Source: Candidatus Woesearchaeota archaeon
Lineage (GTDB): Archaea > Nanobdellota > Nanobdellia > SCGC-AAA011-G17 > GW2011-AR18
Direction: 5' to 3'
DNA length: 64,000 bases
Assembly: GCA_016179945.1 (NCBI GenBank)
Contig: JACPCE010000001.1
Location: 9,202-73,201 of the forward strand
Part shown: positions 3,739 through 50,190 of the stretch, piece after piece
Layout of the letters: every line of letters starts with the position of its first letter
Position numbering within the stretch: position 1 is the stretch's first letter
The notes under the pieces: model-generated
The model's database searches: none
Told to the model about the DNA's origin: nothing
What the model saw: only the letters and a program-made list of their open reading frames with translations
Translations under genes and position numbers: made by a program

Positions 3739-3850
3739 GGGGACGTAGCTCAATCTGTGGATAACACCGATTAAGGAGAGTACACAACTTATAAGTTGGC
3801 TTATACCGCTGAAGCCGGTGTTGTTATGGGTTCAAATCCCATCGTCCCCA
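3739..3850 (+). tRNA. tRNA-Phe (anticodon GAA at 3811-3813) with two putative introns, in the D-loop (~3756-3774) and at 26/27 (~3783-3803)
   Basis: Acceptor GGGGACG/CGTCCCC with A73. D-stem GCTC/GAGT. Anticodon arm TACCG-CTGAAGC-CGGTG. T-arm ATGGG-TTCAAAT-CCCAT. The gene is 112 nt against about 73 expected. The extra approximately 40 nt includes a palindrome CAACTTATAAGTTG at 26/27. Confidence 0.65.
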
Positions 3851-7360: not shown

Positions 7361-7786
7361 ATGGTAACTATATACGACGCAGATATACAAAAATCTATAG
7401 AAAAACTTAGCGATAGTTTAAAATCTCTTGTTAAAGCACCTGAATGGACAAAATTTGTTAAAACAGGGCAAAGCAAAGCAAGGCCTCCTGTTGATTCAGA
7501 CTGGTTCTACAAAAGAGCAGCTGCTATTTTAATCACAATATACAAAAGAGGGCCAATAGGTGTATCTAAACTAAGAGTTAAATATGGATCAAAGAAAAGA
7601 AGAGGACATAATCCAGAAAAATTTTACATAGCATCTGGTAAAATAATCAGAAATATACTTCAACAATTAGATAAGGCAAATCTTACATTGTATAAAAAAG
7701 AAGGGATAATAAAAGGCAGAATAATAACTGCTAAAGGAAAATCTCTAGTAAATAAAAACGCTGTAATAATGAAAAATGAGCAGTGA
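7361..7786 (+). CDS. rps19e: Ribosomal protein S19e
   Basis: MVTIYDADIQKSIEKL...PEWTKFVKTGQSKARPP...DWFYKRAAAILITIYKRGPIGVSKLR...GHNPEKFYIASGKIIRNILQQL matches the S19e consensus. Confidence 0.9.
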   Translation: MVTIYDADIQKSIEKLSDSLKSLVKAPEWTKFVKTGQSKARPPVDSDWFYKRAAAILITIYKRGPIGVSKLRVKYGSKKRRGHNPEKFYIASGKIIRNILQQLDKANLTLYKKEGIIKGRIITAKGKSLVNKNAVIMKNEQ

Positions 7787-14164: not shown

Positions 14165-15283
14165 ATGAAAGCAATTGCAACATGTATAAAAGGATTAGAA
14201 GAAATAACTCAATTAGAAATAAAAGAAATACTAAAGAAAAAATCAGAAATTATTATCCCGTCAAGAATAGCTTTTAATGTAAAAGAGGATAAAGAATTAG
14301 CTAATTTTGTATACAACACAAGAAGTTCTATAAAGGTTTACAAATTAATTAATCATGACAATTTCTCAGATTTAGATGAAATATTAAATAAAGTAAAGAA
14401 AATAAAATTTCCAAAAATTAAAAGTCCTTTTGTAGTAAGATGTGAAAGAATTGGAGAGCACAACTTTAATTCAATAGATGTAGAAAAAGAAATTGGTAAT
14501 ATTATAAACAAAGATAATAAACTAAAAGTAGATCTAAAAAATCCAACAACTATATTAATTATAGATATAGTAAGTAATAAATTTTTTTTAGGAATAGACT
14601 ACACAGGAATAAAACTAACTAAAAGAAACTACAGAATAAAATTGCTTCCTAATTCAATAAATTCCGCTCTAGCTTATTCAATGTTAAGAATATCAGAAAT
14701 AAAAGAAAAAGACACAATTTTAGATCCTATATGTAGATCTGGAGAAATAATGATAGAAGCAGCATTATACTTGCAAAAAATAGCAAATGGATTAAAACTA
14801 TTAGATCAACTAGCATTTAATAAATTATTAAAATTTAATCCAAAAAATATAATAAAAACAAAGAAGTTAAAAATATATTCAATAGACTCATCACAAAACA
14901 GCTTAAAAAGTGCAGAAATAAATGCAAAAATAGCAAATATATACAAAAATATTATTTTTAGTCGTTATGAATTAGAGTGGTTAGATACAAAATTAGATAA
15001 AAATTCAATAGATAAAATAATAACCTTCCCTCAATATCCTACAAATAACCTCCCTACGCAAGAAGTTGAAAAAATTTACAAAGAATTATTTTATCAAGCA
15101 GAATTTATAATTAAAAAAAATGGAATAATAACCATATTAACACCAGTTCCAGAATTAATAGAAAAATATGCGAACTTAAGAAACTTCAAAAAAGAAAAAG
15201 AATATAAAATAAATTATATGCATCAAAATTTCTCAATATTAAAATTGAAAAATGAAATTTGTAATAAACAAAAAAATATTTGA
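14165..15283 (+). CDS. THUMP-domain RNA methyltransferase (Trm14/TrmN-like, COG0116)
   Basis: N-terminal ferredoxin-like plus THUMP region. C-terminal Rossmann MTase (ILDPICRSGEIMIEAAL; ...ITFPQYP). Confidence 0.6.
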   Translation: MKAIATCIKGLEEITQLEIKEILKKKSEIIIPSRIAFNVKEDKELANFVYNTRSSIKVYKLINHDNFSDLDEILNKVKKIKFPKIKSPFVVRCERIGEHNFNSIDVEKEIGNIINKDNKLKVDLKNPTTILIIDIVSNKFFLGIDYTGIKLTKRNYRIKLLPNSINSALAYSMLRISEIKEKDTILDPICRSGEIMIEAALYLQKIANGLKLLDQLAFNKLLKFNPKNIIKTKKLKIYSIDSSQNSLKSAEINAKIANIYKNIIFSRYELEWLDTKLDKNSIDKIITFPQYPTNNLPTQEVEKIYKELFYQAEFIIKKNGIITILTPVPELIEKYANLRNFKKEKEYKINYMHQNFSILKLKNEICNKQKNI

Positions 15284-15956
15284 AAAATTCGAGGGTTTAA
15301 ACCTTGGAGTAATTATAGCTAAAAATATTAGCAACAAAGGAATAAATGAAGAAATATTAAACAAAATCAAAGAAAAAGAAGAATTCATAAGAAAAAACTA
15401 CAAAACTGAGACACTGTCAGAGCATCCAAAAATAAACTGTTGGAGAAAAGTTTACTCAATATTTGGGGGAGAACCAAAGAAAAATAAATCTTCAATAGAA
15501 TCATTATATAGAAGAATTTTAAGTGGAGAAAAAATAAGACATATAAATATTTTAGTAGATATTTATAACCTATTATCAATAAAATATATGCTTCCGATTG
15601 GAGGAGAAGATATTGATAAAATGCAAGGGGATATAGAACTAACTTTTGCAAATTCAAATGAAGCACCTACAATACTTTTAGGAGAAAAAGAGCCAAGACA
15701 ACCACATGAAGGAGAAGTTATTTACAAAGATAAAATTTCAGCAATATGCAGAAGATGGAACTGGCGTGAAGCCGAAAGAACAAAATTAACAGAAGAAACA
15801 AAAAATTGTATTTTAGTTATAGAAGGGTTACATCCAACTACAAAAGAAGGAATAGAAATTGTCACAAAAGAGTTGAAGGAATTAACAGAAATATTATGTG
15901 GTGAAAAAATAAGTTATTGTATTCTAGATAAAAACAAAACAGATATAGAATTTTAA
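15252..15956 (+). CDS. Stand-alone B3/4 domain protein (COG3382, PheT editing-domain-like)
   Basis: The B3_4-like core NILVDIYNLLSIKYMLPIGGEDIDKMQGDIELTFA...LTEETKNCILVIEG. It is paralogous to the C-terminal domain of the MetRS at 51723..53855. Confidence 0.6.
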   Translation: MKFVINKKIFEKFEGLNLGVIIAKNISNKGINEEILNKIKEKEEFIRKNYKTETLSEHPKINCWRKVYSIFGGEPKKNKSSIESLYRRILSGEKIRHINILVDIYNLLSIKYMLPIGGEDIDKMQGDIELTFANSNEAPTILLGEKEPRQPHEGEVIYKDKISAICRRWNWREAERTKLTEETKNCILVIEGLHPTTKEGIEIVTKELKELTEILCGEKISYCILDKNKTDIEF

Positions 15957-15996
15957 TTTAGGAAAGTTTTTTAAATTATATATATGTAAAGAAGTT

Positions 15997-16404
15997 ATGT
16001 CAAAAGAAGAAGAAATATTTAATCAAAGATTAAAGAAAATAGAAGAAATAAAAAACATGGGAATAAATCCATATCCTTACAAATTTGACCAGAAAAATCA
16101 TGCTAATGAAATTCTTGAAAAATACAAAAACCTGGAAAAAGAAGAGAAAACTAAAGATAGCGCCTCATTAGCTGGAAGAATAATGAGTTTAAGGGAAATG
16201 GGAAAAGCTTCTTTTGGTCACATTCAGGATGTATCTGGAAAAATCCAATTTTATATTAGGGAAGATCAAGTTGGAGAAAAAACATACAGTTTATTCAAAA
16301 AATTAGACTTAGGCGATCTTATAGGAATAGAAATTCTTAATGCTTCAAAAAATCTGGGAAATTTTTTTTCTTCTGGTAAACTTCAAGTCGTAAAAACTTC
16401 TTAA
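15997..16404 (+). CDS. lysS: Lysyl-tRNA synthetase class II, N-terminal anticodon-binding (OB) fragment of a disrupted gene
   Basis: RIMSLREMGKASFGHIQDVSGKIQFYIREDQVGEKTYSLFKKLDLGDLIGIEI aligns with the E. coli LysS N-domain. The ORF ends at a TAA just after a poly-T(8) run. Confidence 0.75.
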   Translation: MSKEEEIFNQRLKKIEEIKNMGINPYPYKFDQKNHANEILEKYKNLEKEEKTKDSASLAGRIMSLREMGKASFGHIQDVSGKIQFYIREDQVGEKTYSLFKKLDLGDLIGIEILNASKNLGNFFSSGKLQVVKTS

Positions 16405-16599
16405 AAGCGCCAAAAAGATCAAATTTACAAATTTCCTGCATAGACGCCCATCGAGTGTACTGAACCAGCAGCTGTTGTTGAGGTAAGAATGTCGAAGCGT
16501 ACAAGTTGGCAGAGTTGTTTTAGATCTGAATAGTCGAGCATATCTAAAGTTTATCACAGAGAATTTATTGAATTTATTACAAAAATTAATGCATGGAAT
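16405..16599 (+). other. GC-rich 195-nt segment interrupting lysS, with three in-frame stops (TAA, TAG, TAG). Either a degraded core region or an inserted structured RNA.
   Basis: Same reading frame as both lysS pieces. Local GC is about 45-50% against about 28% in the flanks. The last approximately 25 codons (FIEFITKINAWNMQMYLRIA) still resemble LysRS ([20 protein letters not shown]). Confidence 0.5.
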
Positions 16600-17865
16600 A
16601 TGCAAATGTATTTAAGAATAGCTTATGAACTTGATCTAAAAAGATTAATAACTGGTGGTTTTGAAAAAATTTATGATCTAAGCTCTTGTTTCAGAAATGA
16701 AGATGCAGATAGAACCCATAATCCAGAATTCGCAATGATGGAAATACAATGGGCTTACGCAGATTATAACGATGCTATGAAATTAACAGAAGAATTGTGG
16801 GAATACGTAGCCAAAGAGGTTTTAAGAACAACAATTATTGAATATGCAGGAAATAAAATTAACTTAAAAGCACCATGGAATAGACTTACTATTAAAGATG
16901 CACTAAAAGAATTAGGTAATATTGATACTGACAAATTAAAAGATAAAGAATTAGTAGAATTAATAGAAAAAAACAAAATAGAATATGAAGGAAATCCAAC
17001 AAGAGGAGAAATGATTATGTTATTATTTGAAAAATTATGTGAACATAAATTAATTCAACCAACACATATAACAGACCATCCAAAAGAATCTTGTCCACTA
17101 GCAAAAGCACATAGAAAAGATCCAAAATTAATAGAAAGAATTGAACCATTTATTAATGGATTTGAAGTGGGTAATTGTTACACAGAACTTAATGATCCAA
17201 TTATACAAAGAAAACTTCTTGAAGAACAAGCTAAAAAAGGCAGGGGTGGTGATGAAGAAGCACACCCAATGGACGAGGATTTTATACAATCAATGGAATT
17301 TGGATTACCTCCAAACACAGGAATTGGTGTTGGTGTAGACAGAATGGTTATGTTGCTAACAGGTGCTGAATCAATTAGAGATATAATATTGTTTCCAACA
17401 ATGAAACCAGAACAATTACTTGAAGACCAAACAGGAAAGGCAAAAGAAACAAAATTAGCAGTTGCAGTTCTTAACAAAGGGATTAAAATGAAAAAATGGG
17501 AAGAAATGAATACTATAGCGCATCTAAATGCAGCATTTGGTGCAAGAATAGGAAAGCAATTATTCTTGCAAGATAAAATAAAAACTAAAGATAATAAAGA
17601 AATTAATCTTAATATACAGCATGCAATCTTGATAAAAGAAGCAATATCAAACAAAGATATAATTAATTTAATTAAGCAGGCAGAAGAAAAAGAATTAGAA
17701 GTAGCTGAATTTACAAGAGAAATGATAATTACTACAGATGATAAAAAAGTAATTTCTCTTACACAAAATAAAAATTTAAATGATGTTGAATATCTTGGGG
17801 CTTTAATTTTCGGAGAAAAAGCAGATGTTGAAAAAATTACTAAAAATTTTAAATTGTATGAATAA
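16600..17865 (+). CDS. lysS: Lysyl-tRNA synthetase class II catalytic-core fragment (motifs 2 and 3) fused to a C-terminal Pth2-like domain
   Basis: MYLRIAYELDLKRLITGGFEKIYDLSSCFRNEDAD is motif 2. GIGVGVDRMVMLLTGAESIRDIILFP is motif 3. The C-terminal approximately 160 aa (KLAVAVLNKGIKMKK...KITKNFKLYE) resemble the peptidyl-tRNA hydrolase 2 fold. Confidence 0.75.
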   Translation: MQMYLRIAYELDLKRLITGGFEKIYDLSSCFRNEDADRTHNPEFAMMEIQWAYADYNDAMKLTEELWEYVAKEVLRTTIIEYAGNKINLKAPWNRLTIKDALKELGNIDTDKLKDKELVELIEKNKIEYEGNPTRGEMIMLLFEKLCEHKLIQPTHITDHPKESCPLAKAHRKDPKLIERIEPFINGFEVGNCYTELNDPIIQRKLLEEQAKKGRGGDEEAHPMDEDFIQSMEFGLPPNTGIGVGVDRMVMLLTGAESIRDIILFPTMKPEQLLEDQTGKAKETKLAVAVLNKGIKMKKWEEMNTIAHLNAAFGARIGKQLFLQDKIKTKDNKEINLNIQHAILIKEAISNKDIINLIKQAEEKELEVAEFTREMIITTDDKKVISLTQNKNLNDVEYLGALIFGEKADVEKITKNFKLYE

Positions 17866-18001
17866 AAATTAATAAGTTCTAAGAAATAAAGAAACATTTA
17901 TAAACGGCTAAAATTGCTAAATTGATAAGAAAACGAGTCTAAAGCCTTAAAAAGCCTATTCTCGTTTTATGATAAACAATAAAAACTGGAGGTATGTAAA
18001 A

Positions 18002-18172
18002 ATGAGTGAGTTATTGGTTGTAAGAAGTAAAATAAAAGACGTAGCAAAAGGAATGAATGTTTCTGGTGATTTTGCAGATGCTTTAAGTGCAAAAGTAGAA
18101 ATGCTTATTAAAGAGGCTTGCAGAAGATCTAAAGAAAATAAAAGATCAACTATTCAACCTAGAGACCTATAA
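18002..18172 (+). CDS. Histone-fold-like small protein (DUF1931-like)
   Basis: GGAGGT SD 7 nt upstream. MSELLVVRSKIKDVAKGMNVSGDFADALSAKVEMLIKEACRRSKEN is a helix-strand-helix histone-fold pattern. Confidence 0.45.
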   Translation: MSELLVVRSKIKDVAKGMNVSGDFADALSAKVEMLIKEACRRSKENKRSTIQPRDL

Positions 18173-18190
18173 GTCTCTGGTTTTCTTTTT
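18161..18190 (+). terminator. Hairpin AGAGAC-N6-GTCTCT followed by a T-tract
   Basis: An inverted repeat lies immediately after the stop codon and is followed by GGTTTTCTTTTT. Confidence 0.3.
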
Positions 18191-18237
18191 ATATTTAATT
18201 AAGAAAGTTATTTATAGAACAGAATTATAATTTCTTT

Positions 18238-18663
18238 ATGGCATCCAAAGGCAAGGGTTCTAGGACAGAAAGAGAACTTGTGCATTTATTCAATCAAACA
18301 GGAACTTGGTCTGCAATAAGGGTAGCAGGATCTGGTTTAACAAAAGACCCAAACCCAGACGTACTGGCAGGAAACAAAAAAAGACACCTTGCAATAGAAT
18401 GCAAATCTATTAAAGGCATCTCAAAATATTTATATCCGGAAGAAATAGAACAAATAATCAACTTTGCAAATAAATTTGGAGCTGAGCCTTGGATAGCGAT
18501 AAGATTTAATCACAAGGGATGGTATTTCCTAAAAACAGAAGACTTAGAAAAAACAAAAAGTTCAAATTTAGTAATTAATTTAAAATTAGCAGAAGAAAAA
18601 GGTTTAAAATTTGAGGATATAGTAAAAGAAGGTGATGAAAATGCAAGAACTAATAAAATATAG
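18238..18663 (+). CDS. hjc: Holliday junction resolvase Hjc
   Basis: KGSRTERELVHLFNQTGTWSAIRVAGSG...DVLAGNKKRHLAIECKSIKG...PWIAIRFNHKGWYF matches the Hjc nuclease motifs. Confidence 0.85.
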   Translation: MASKGKGSRTERELVHLFNQTGTWSAIRVAGSGLTKDPNPDVLAGNKKRHLAIECKSIKGISKYLYPEEIEQIINFANKFGAEPWIAIRFNHKGWYFLKTEDLEKTKSSNLVINLKLAEEKGLKFEDIVKEGDENARTNKI

Positions 18664-19018
18664 TGGATTAAAAGACTTAAATGAAGATGAACAAGTAAGA
18701 TTAAAAAATCTTGTAGAAAAAGAATTCCCGAAAATACAAAGACTTGCAAAGGAAATTTCAAGTTTTAACATAAACATAAAAGTAATGAAAAAAGAGACTA
18801 AAAAAAGATATATGATAAATATGAAATTACAATCTAATGGAAAAATATTTGTTACAAAAAATAAAGATACTGAAAGGGGTGGTGATTGGGATCTTAATAA
18901 AGAAGTGCATAAAGAATTAAAAGCCTTAATTGGAGAACTCAAACACCATTATAAAAATAATGTTGGAAGATGGAAATTAGGTGGAATTAAAGGTTTGTTA
19001 AAGAAATTTGAATCTTAG
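18632..19018 (+). CDS. Hypothetical protein, possibly a ribosome-hibernation-factor (HPF/RaiA)-like fold
   Basis: It overlaps the hjc 3' end by 32 nt. MQELIKYSGLKDLNEDEQVRLKNLVEKEF...INIKVMKK...MINMKLQSNGKIFVTKNKD...ELKALIGELKHH suggests a beta-alpha-beta-beta-beta-alpha layout. Confidence 0.35.
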   Translation: MMKMQELIKYSGLKDLNEDEQVRLKNLVEKEFPKIQRLAKEISSFNINIKVMKKETKKRYMINMKLQSNGKIFVTKNKDTERGGDWDLNKEVHKELKALIGELKHHYKNNVGRWKLGGIKGLLKKFES

Positions 19019-19052
19019 TTAAATTTATGAATTATAGAAATAAACTAAAGAA

Positions 19053-19778
19053 ATGTTAATAGTAAAAAACCTTAGAAAAAAGTACAAAGATTTTCTAGCA
19101 TTAAAAGGAATAAGTTATGAAATAAAAGAAGGTGAAATATTTGGAATTCTTGGGCCAAACGGCGCTGGCAAATCCACAATGATAAAAATCCTCACTTGTT
19201 TCCATAAGCCTACTTCAGGAACTGTAGAAATAAATAAAATATCAATTAAAGAAAAGGATAAAATTAAACAATTGATCGGCTGGGTTCCTCAGGAGGAGAC
19301 ATTTTATACAAATTTAACTGTAAAAGAAAACATAGAATATTTCGGATCATTATATAACATTTCAAGAAAAGAAATAAAATCAAGATCTGAAGAAATATTA
19401 AAATTATTGCAAATAGAAAACAAAACAAACTCTCTCGCAGGATCTTTATCAGGAGGTATGAAAAGAAGGCTTAGCTTAGCTATAGCATTGATACATAATC
19501 CAAAAATTATTTACTTAGACGAACCAACAGCAGGAGTAGATCCAGTTTCAAGAAGAGCATTATGGGAAATAATAAAAAAAATAAAACAAAAAAATATCAC
19601 AATATTATTCTGTACTCATTACTTGGATGAAGCTGAATTATTATGTGATAGAATTGCAATATTAAGATCTGGTGAAATTATAGCAATAGATACGCCGGCA
19701 AAATTGAAGAAAAAATATAAAACACTTGAAGAAGCATTCATAAAGTTGGTTAAATATGAAAATAGAAAAACTAGTTAA
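19053..19778 (+). CDS. ABC transporter ATP-binding protein
   Basis: Walker A GPNGAGKST, signature LSGGMKRRLSLA, Walker B IIYLDEPTAGVD. Confidence 0.9.
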   Translation: MLIVKNLRKKYKDFLALKGISYEIKEGEIFGILGPNGAGKSTMIKILTCFHKPTSGTVEINKISIKEKDKIKQLIGWVPQEETFYTNLTVKENIEYFGSLYNISRKEIKSRSEEILKLLQIENKTNSLAGSLSGGMKRRLSLAIALIHNPKIIYLDEPTAGVDPVSRRALWEIIKKIKQKNITILFCTHYLDEAELLCDRIAILRSGEIIAIDTPAKLKKKYKTLEEAFIKLVKYENRKTS

Positions 19779-49475: not shown

Positions 49476-50087
49476 ATGAAACTAGAAGTCCCTTTTTATA
49501 TTCAAGGAATAAATGAATGTGGTCCTGCAGCATTACAAATGGCTTTAGAATTTCTAGGAGAAAAACACGAAAAGGAAGAAATAAAGAAACTAATTGAAAG
49601 TGAAAGTACTGGTGCAACATGGACTATAGGTCTAGCAAAAGCTTCTGCACAATTAGGATTCAAAACAGAATTTTATAGTAAATCTCTAGGATTCAATCCG
49701 GAAAACTTTGATTTGGAATATTACCAAAGGGAAACAGATGGAGCAGAAAATGTAGAAATAAAAATCAAAAAATTACAAGCAGAATGTATAAAATATAAAG
49801 TAGAAATGGAAGAGAGAGAAATTCCTCTAGATGAAATAATATCGAAAATAAATGAAAATTGCACTGCAATTGTTTTAATAGATTGGGGTAAAATAAAAAA
49901 CGTTGATAGATACATTGGACATTTCTTACCAATAGTGGGATTTGATGAAGAAAATATATACTTGCACCAGCCAGGTCCAAAAGATCCTGAAGCAAATTTC
50001 AAAATAAATAAATTTTTATTTGACACTGCAAGAAAATCAAAAGGAACAGATGAAGATATTATTTTTATTCATAGGAAAATGCACTAA
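49476..50087 (+). CDS. Peptidase C39-like (papain-fold) domain protein
   Basis: VPFYIQGINECGPAALQMALEFLG has the Cys in a C39 / Peptidase_C39_2-like context. Confidence 0.45.
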   Translation: MKLEVPFYIQGINECGPAALQMALEFLGEKHEKEEIKKLIESESTGATWTIGLAKASAQLGFKTEFYSKSLGFNPENFDLEYYQRETDGAENVEIKIKKLQAECIKYKVEMEEREIPLDEIISKINENCTAIVLIDWGKIKNVDRYIGHFLPIVGFDEENIYLHQPGPKDPEANFKINKFLFDTARKSKGTDEDIIFIHRKMH

Positions 50088-50190
50088 CTGGGATTTGAAC
50101 CCAGATCAAAACCTTTTTCCTTAAATTTATTCAAACTTTTTATAAAAAGTTTGTTGGGAAGGTTTCATGCTGCCGTTACACTATTAGTGC
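50080..50190 (-). tRNA. tRNA-Gly (anticodon CCC) with a 40-nt canonical-position (37/38) intron at ~50115-50154
   Basis: Minus-strand RNA reads GCACTAA-TA-GTGT-AACGGCA-GCAT-G-AAACC-TTCCCA-[intron with an 11-bp perfect palindrome CAAACTTTTTA/TAAAAAGTTTG]-A-GGTTT-TGAT-CTGGG-TTCAAAT-CCCAG-TTAGTGC-A. The 3' end overlaps the stop of the 49476..50087 CDS. Confidence 0.6.

Follow-up and report, generated by a model that had tools for sequence, protein, structure and literature searches.

The lysS locus as deposited

We analysed lysS, the gene for class II lysyl-tRNA synthetase (LysRS), in a 64,000-nucleotide (nt) stretch of contig JACPCE010000001.1 (positions 9,202 to 73,201), which belongs to a metagenome-assembled genome (MAG) of a Candidatus Woesearchaeota archaeon (GCA_016179945.1) and is termed the window in the following. 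As deposited, lysS consists of two open reading frames (ORFs) on the plus strand that lie in the same frame, one of 135 amino acids (aa) at 15997-16404 comprising the oligonucleotide/oligosaccharide-binding (OB) fold and one of 421 aa at 16600-17865 comprising the catalytic part. The two ORFs are separated by three in-frame stop codons (TAA at 16402, TAG at 16441 and TAG at 16531), the first of which is preceded by a run of eight T residues (16362-16369). All of this had been reported by a first-pass annotation of the sequence, and our analysis agrees. Both ORFs have given rise to protein entries at NCBI, i.e. HYU23_00150 (135 aa, 'hypothetical protein') and MBI2148069 ('DUF2000 family protein'). 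The locus is composed of the following elements:

15997..16329, plus strand: authentic 5' part of lysS, codons 1-111, i.e. the N-terminal helix and most of the OB-fold anticodon-binding domain (PF01336; alignment to loci L001-L007 and L011)
16310..16332, plus strand: left junction TAGGCGATCTTATAGGAATAGAA, a string of 20-23 nt that fits both lysS (LGDLIGIE) and the DUF2283 gene of the bacterial contig L008 (KIGDLIGIE)
16330..16571, plus strand: foreign patch, 242 nt in place of 293 nt of lysS, within the 262-nt block 16310-16571 shared with L008
16402..16404, plus strand: first in-frame stop, TAA, identical to the natural stop of the DUF2283 ORF in L008
16441..16443, plus strand: second in-frame stop, TAG, within the foreign patch
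16531..16533, plus strand: third in-frame stop, TAG, within the foreign patch
16572..17438, plus strand: authentic catalytic core of lysS, starting right after the ATP-binding GGANARP (FITKINAW...) and extending via motif 2 (FRNE) and motif 3 to ..ILFPTMKP (PF00152, NF001756)

In the 135-aa ORF Pfam recognizes the OB-fold PF01336 (E 3.7e-9), covering model positions 2-54 of 75, and the end of the OB-fold is overwritten by the patch. The 421-aa ORF opens at an internal Met within the class II core and matches PF00152 (E 6e-63) at model positions 72-307 of 308 and NF001756 at model positions 217-488; it contains motif 2 (FRNEDADRTHNPEF) and motif 3 (GIGVGVDRMVMLL), and motif 1 is missing. In the homologues, motif 1 and the ATP-binding loop GGAxARPF lie within ...GFIEVRTPILQTQYGGANARP, a segment for which no equivalent exists on either strand. 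The 421-aa ORF stays below the NCBIfam cut-offs for LysRS, with 371 bits vs 468 for NF001756 and 327 vs 427.6 for TIGR00499. The intact homologue P0002 scores 678 and 607 bits, respectively, and both P0002 and the second intact homologue discussed below, P0015, pass the cut-offs. Thus, the window copy resembles class II LysS (TIGR00499/NF001756; PF01336 plus PF00152) in the N-terminal OB-fold, in motifs 2 and 3 and in its overall sequence, but it is short of about 97 residues, i.e. the end of the OB-fold, the linker, motif 1 and GGANARP.

Comparison with homologous loci

The limits of the interruption were determined by blastn comparison with eight homologous lysS loci (L001-L007 and L011), most of which are flanked by the same genes as in the window. 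All eight align up to position 16329 and then again from position 16572 on, i.e. the stretch that does not belong to lysS is 16330-16571, 242 nt or 80 codons long. What has been lost amounts to 293 nt (L002 6334-6626), or about 97 codons, encoding the end of the OB-fold, the linker, motif 1 and GGANARPF. The first-pass annotation had estimated the loss of motif 1 and the ATP-binding loop at about 100 residues, which the alignment bears out. Its 195-nt segment is correct as the spacing between the ORFs, but the foreign stretch is wider, and the about 65 poorly matching codons that it had read there show no match to LysRS at all: in none of the six frames does tblastn find any homology to LysRS in the patch.

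lysS is uninterrupted at every homologous locus except L011, where the scaffold has a gap of its own. Of the intact homologues, two come closest: P0002 (639 aa, with a DUF2000 domain), which is 81% identical, and P0015 (498 aa, without DUF2000), which is 86% identical over the shared part and whose loci have the gene order of the window (THUMP-B3/4-lysS-histone-Hjc). Moreover, the lysS flanks of the patch (333 nt and 1294 nt) contain neither stop codons nor frameshifts and their protein is 81-90% identical to the closest relatives, with the 5' part 15997..16329 reaching 90% aa identity to P0125/P0015.

Other sources of the stretch within lysS were considered and rejected. A heavily mutated remnant of lysS does not fit, as 16330-16571 has no DNA homology to L001 and L002, and neither does an inverted or scrambled version of the missing segment, as a tblastn search with four intact homologues, run against 15901-17900 in all six frames, returned nothing above noise for the minus strand. 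A likeness between 'SKVYHREFIE' and 'AKIYKTIREFLD' is due to chance because the stretch is identical throughout to a bacterial contig. An internal repeat or a miniature inverted-repeat transposable element was dismissed as well, since the window contains no second copy and the direct and inverted repeats found are all short and weak.

A 262-nt block identical to a bacterial contig

A search for exact matches of a 22-nt string from the patch core in a set comprising one genome per GTDB species yielded one match, which led to JACQRR010000153.1 (L008), a 7.7-kb contig from a MAG of Candidatus Roizmanbacteria, obtained in the groundwater project PRJNA640378 at site Ag. Window positions 16310-16571 are identical to L008 positions 7371-7632 over 262 nt without a single mismatch, and there is no further match to the L008 contig in the rest of the window. 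The first 95 nt of the block (16310-16404) constitute the 3' end of a DUF2283-type ORF (..GDLIGIEILNASKNLGN..*), and the remainder contains no recognizable gene. The ORF in L008 ends with ...VDIFIELDKIGDLIGIEILNASKNLGNFFSSGKLQVVKTS*, its upstream residues lying outside of the shared block, and it belongs to DUF2283 (PF10049; E 4e-8 and 5e-5). Thus, in terms of this family of small proteins the window contains only a tail, the C-terminal GIEILNAS end, and the N-terminal portion is found in the Roizmanbacteria contig. In the patch this tail is the only recognizable domain, and it was recognized after the L008 context had been added; Pfam searches at E<=10 with six ORFs or reading-frame fragments of the patch gave no match.

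The GC content is 29.6% in the window and 28.8% in the lysS flanks, as compared to 35.1% in the shared block, 42.6% in its core (16405-16540) and 38.5% in L008. The value of 45-50% that had been given for 16405-16540 in the first-pass annotation is too high, and with 1.8% of all 140-nt windows having a GC content at least as high the core is unusual, but not unique. As the block continues the DUF2283 frame beyond its own edge in L008, and as its GC content fits L008 and not the window, we conclude that it is native to the bacterial contig and foreign in lysS. Consequently, the TAA at 16402 that terminates the 'N-terminal lysS fragment' is the stop codon of DUF2283. Of the two meanings that had been attached to the raised GC content, structured RNA or foreign DNA, the latter has proven right, whereas searches for RNA were negative: nothing in Rfam reaches the gathering threshold, at E<=10 only noise is returned (E>2), and on neither strand does the patch fold with a better minimum free energy (MFE) than its dinucleotide shuffles (z +1.31 and +0.57), so that an RNA gene or intron was rejected. 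Introns of any type are also excluded on logical grounds, since the 293 nt (about 97 codons) would still be missing once the patch had been removed.

The two junctions differ in nature. On the left, exact identity to L008 starts at 16310 and homology to lysS relatives extends to 16329, and therefore the two genomes have an exact 20-23-mer in common at the break; TAGGCGATCTTATAGGAATA(GAA) may be read as L-G-D-L-I-G-I-(E) of LysRS and as I-G-D-L-I-G-I-E of DUF2283. The right junction (16571/16572) is blunt, with nothing shared beyond TTTATT.

The proteins of the window correspond to the NCBI entries MBI2148067-MBI2148071/HYU23 of the Candidatus Woesearchaeota MAG, where they lie on an 86,986-bp contig, and, judging from the accession series, these entries probably belong to PRJNA640378, too. 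Window positions 17675-19573 are matched at 100% identity by Logan contigs of the runs SRR12113431 and SRR12113422; these contigs of the same organism (L009 and L010) begin at 17675 and 18166, i.e. they stop short of the lesion. Searches for other assemblies of the interrupted region were negative. Exact look-ups of the 135-aa ORF, of P0001 and of a 55-aa ORF on the minus strand returned no record, the first 112 aa and the 130 aa past the junction, used as protein queries, retrieved no fragments of the same organism, JGI metagenome contigs contain neither the patch nor the right flank of lysS, and viral contigs lack the patch.

Two further observations were made on L008. The Roizmanbacteria DUF2283 gene (L008 7233-7466) can be read from ATG to stop only if two frameshifts are allowed for, and the contig stops 65 nt beyond the shared block. 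The DUF2283 region of L008 may thus be error-prone or strain-variable in the Roizmanbacteria population as well.

Origin of the interruption

Based on these findings we consider it likely that the deposited scaffold is chimeric here and that the interruption of lysS does not exist in the gene of this organism; the split itself is most likely no real feature. An assembly chimera had been one of the options of the first-pass annotation, and it is the one that best fits a patch that is 100% identical over 262 nt to a contig of a bacterium of the Candidate Phyla Radiation (CPR). MEGAHIT in default mode uses a smallest k of 21, and therefore a shared string of at least 21 nt makes a junction in the assembly graph. 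Where contigs are estimated to lie at a distance of zero or less, the IDBA scaffolder trims and then adds the next one without any check of the overlap. Both programs were employed in PRJNA640378, where MEGAHIT v1.2.9, run with default settings, produced the contigs and the scaffolding function of IDBA-UD then joined them (PMC7906910). The assembly path would thus have left the Woesearchaeota lysS within the 20-23-nt string TAGGCGATCTTATAGGAATAGAA, which encodes GDLIGIE and also occurs in the DUF2283 gene of the Roizmanbacteria population, a co-occurring and more GC-rich one, and would have followed the bacterial sequence for about 240 nt. The next lysS contig would then have been butt-joined without shared sequence at approximately the distance given by the read pairs (242 nt for 293 nt), i.e. 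the software would have made a k-mer-mediated junction on the left and a blunt scaffolder junction on the right. Like P0002, the product of the true gene is expected to be a LysRS-DUF2000 protein of about 637-640 aa without interruption.

In several respects this scheme corresponds to known MAG chimeras that arise from shared short k-mers and unverified scaffold joins: the patch equals part of a contig of another organism from what is probably the same project, one of the breakpoints lies in an exact shared string of about the smallest k of the assembler, and the replaced length is close to the true length, disrupting an essential gene that is otherwise intact. A typical chimera, however, joins two genomes once, whereas here the path re-enters the same gene after 242 nt via a second, blunt join. 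Local errors of this type do occur, as can be seen from junk sequence and a gap of 10 N within lysS at L011.

L011 (ENA ANAN16-1 scaffold_7141, Rifle site) is a scaffold from an earlier, different project of the same laboratory. At 1280-1325 it contains about 34 nt of non-lysS sequence followed by the 10-N gap, in the same part of lysS, and the gene is divided into calls of 134 aa and 278 aa there. This gap is an independent local assembly defect.

A number of points weigh against an assembly error. An error in the de Bruijn graph alone does not account for the right junction, where no k-mer is shared, so that a second step, either a scaffold join or patching, must be postulated. The patch preserves the reading frame (a difference of 51 nt), for which the chance is 1 in 3. 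Additionally, the search for another LysRS gene covered the 64-kb window.

The main competitor of an assembly chimera is a real and very recent replacement, in which 242 nt of Roizmanbacteria DNA, or of a DUF2283 locus common to both organisms, would have recombined into lysS by microhomology, leaving a fresh pseudogene and LysRS activity to be provided by a class I lysK, a second lysS or the host. Such an arrangement is exactly what the deposited sequence exhibits, the 20-23-nt string at the left junction could have acted as recombination microhomology, and CPR bacteria and DPANN archaea both occur at site Ag in PRJNA640378. Nevertheless, we regard it as unlikely: given 100% identity over 262 nt and undecayed flanks, the event would have to be of essentially zero age and yet dominate the consensus of the population. 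It would also have removed motif 1 and GGANARPF from the sole LysRS gene seen in the window, in which there is no second lysS, with both flanks remaining open in spite of a genome of 29% GC, and the homologous loci are all intact apart from the scaffold gap of L011. That none of ten close NCBI LysRS homologues bears an MBI2148xxx accession points in the same direction, but is a weak test, most of the ten having no listed accession. The more specific scenario, i.e. that the DPANN archaeon very recently took the 242 nt from a co-resident CPR bacterium into its only class II lysS by microhomology-mediated recombination, is less probable still. A pseudogene with a class I LysRS elsewhere in the genome, as put forward in the first-pass annotation, is likewise disfavoured, both flanks being intact and aligning over their full length to intact homologues (81-90% identity to the closest). 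Were the patch real, the cell would depend on another source of Lys-tRNA and express a truncated protein consisting of the catalytic core and the Pth2-like DUF2000 domain, and the locus would have captured an exchange of DNA between domains as well as the loss of an essential gene in an episymbiont.

Two further readings leave the archaeon with a functional product. Split genes are known in Nanoarchaeota and DPANN, and NCBI has annotated both ORFs as proteins, so that the 135-aa and 421-aa proteins might be the separate subunits of a naturally split enzyme, or the latter might be a new truncated aminoacyl-tRNA synthetase (aaRS)-Pth2-like protein, as had been proposed previously. This is very improbable, as motif 1, which forms the dimer interface, and the ATP-binding loop are present in neither piece, the larger piece starting at an internal Met. 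Moreover, the tail of the 135-aa ORF is bacterial DUF2283 sequence, the NF001756 score given above is far from that of the intact P0002, and protein searches found the same split in no homologue, the only 100% matches being the entries of the record itself and the split of L011 being an N-gap. That a functional inserted element, be it a structured RNA gene, a group I or group II intron or an archaeal bulge-helix-bulge intron, is removed or bypassed to give a working LysRS has next to no probability. The locally raised GC content (42.6% vs 29.6%) might speak for it, and so might the presumably intron-containing tRNA genes of the window, from which it follows that a splicing endonuclease is presumably present. 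However, besides the negative Rfam and folding results, excision would leave about 97 codons missing, and the segment is part of a bacterial DUF2283 locus. The insertion option of the first-pass annotation therefore fails.

The tRNA genes in question were found by Rfam at 3739-3850 (plus strand) and 50080-50190 (minus strand) and are 111-112 nt long; both presumably contain archaeal introns. ARAGORN reported no tRNA gene in the window.

If lysS has been interrupted by an assembly chimera, the deposited MAG harbours a bacterial patch inside an essential archaeal gene, the protein entries HYU23_00150 and MBI2148069 are artefacts, and conclusions on completeness or metabolism such as 'LysRS is missing or pseudogenised in this DPANN archaeon' would be wrong. 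A GC island with in-frame stop codons in a conserved gene of a MAG should thus be compared with co-assembled organisms first.

The C-terminal DUF2000 domain

The 421-aa ORF contains an additional C-terminal domain:

17461..17859, plus strand: DUF2000 domain with a Pth2-like fold, fused to LysRS (PF09391; profile match and Foldseek match to 2GAX)

PF09391 matches residues 288-420 of the ORF (E 4e-18, 66 bits vs a cut-off of 25) at model positions 4-132 of 133, and a profile built from 21 of these domains matches by sequence only one entry of the PDB, 2GAX (Atu0240; E 1e-4). For the structural comparison a model of the fused domain predicted by AlphaFold with an alignment was used (predicted local distance difference test, pLDDT, 87.7); a single-sequence prediction (pLDDT 43.7) was set aside. 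The C-terminal 133 residues thus match the DUF2000 family, and the model superposes on 2GAX (Foldseek E 2e-11, template modelling (TM) score 0.75-0.80). After 2GAX, all significant Foldseek matches are structures of peptidyl-tRNA hydrolase 2 (Pth2), with E values of 3e-6 to 1e-4, a probability of 1.00 and target-normalised TM scores of 0.66-0.75, i.e. human Bit1 (1Q7S) and the proteins from M. jannaschii (2ZV3), A. fulgidus (3ERJ), P. horikoshii (1WN2), S. solfataricus (1XTY) and T. acidophilum (1RLK). The model shares the fold of Pth2/Bit1 (1Q7S, 1XTY, 2ZV3, 3ERJ), but a match at the level of sequence is absent: the PTH2 family (PF01981) gives none at E<=0.01, and no Pth2 chain appears in PDB sequence or profile searches at E<=10. 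The resemblance to Pth2 that had been noted in the first-pass annotation therefore applies to the fold, whereas the sequence family is DUF2000 and not PTH2. In the fused domain, polar residues are conserved at N17, N29, T30, H33, R41, D56, N63, D106 and K116. Taken together, the C-terminal domain is a real DUF2000 domain with a predicted Pth2-like fold and is independent of the break in lysS.

Bacterial class II LysS lacks a C-terminal DUF2000 domain, whereas the window copy has one. The LysRS-DUF2000 fusion is found in dozens of proteins of 630-660 aa from Woesearchaeota and Nanoarchaeota and is intact in P0002-P0014 and others. The domain is present in the window and at L001 (P0002), but not in lysS of the L002 type, where window positions 17439-17881 have no counterpart (vs L002 7492-7511). 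As the window shares about 78-82% DNA identity with L001 and likewise with the L002-type loci, gain or loss of DUF2000 has taken place among Woesearchaeota that are fairly closely related. To our knowledge no activity has been assigned to DUF2000, and no paper mentioning it was found in the literature searched. The predicted fold, together with the fusion, suggests that a cis-acting hydrolase or tRNA-handling function may be attached to LysRS. The class II LysRS-DUF2000 fusion, common in Woesearchaeota, often located beside a free-standing gene for an editing-type B3/4 domain and so far unstudied, is what is left as real biology at this locus, and it constitutes a modest but genuine lead.

Gene neighbourhood

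The genes around lysS are, in this order, a THUMP methyltransferase, a B3/4-domain protein, lysS, a small histone-fold protein and the resolvase Hjc. Directly upstream of lysS lies:

15252..15956, plus strand: free-standing B3/4-domain protein (PF03483, E 5e-28), the editing-type domain of the β subunit of phenylalanyl-tRNA synthetase (PheRS)

This gene is kept upstream of lysS in L002-L006 and L011 and is absent from L001, the locus of P0002. A database homologue, P0093 (725 aa), is a fusion of B3_4 and LysRS, and these observations suggest a functional link of B3/4, LysRS and the DUF2000 domain.

Downstream of lysS, a 67-aa ORF at 17969-18172 (plus strand) gives a weak histone-fold match (PF00125, E 5e-4, under the Pfam cut-off) and is followed by the gene for the Holliday-junction resolvase Hjc at 18238-18663 (plus strand), an order that is kept in relatives of the L002 type. 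On the other side, the THUMP/UPF0020 methyltransferase ORF (14165-15283, plus strand) and the B3/4 ORF (15252-15956, plus strand) overlap by 32 nt when counted from their first start codons, which points to a tight, operon-like packing of tRNA-related genes or to a true start of the B3/4 gene further downstream.

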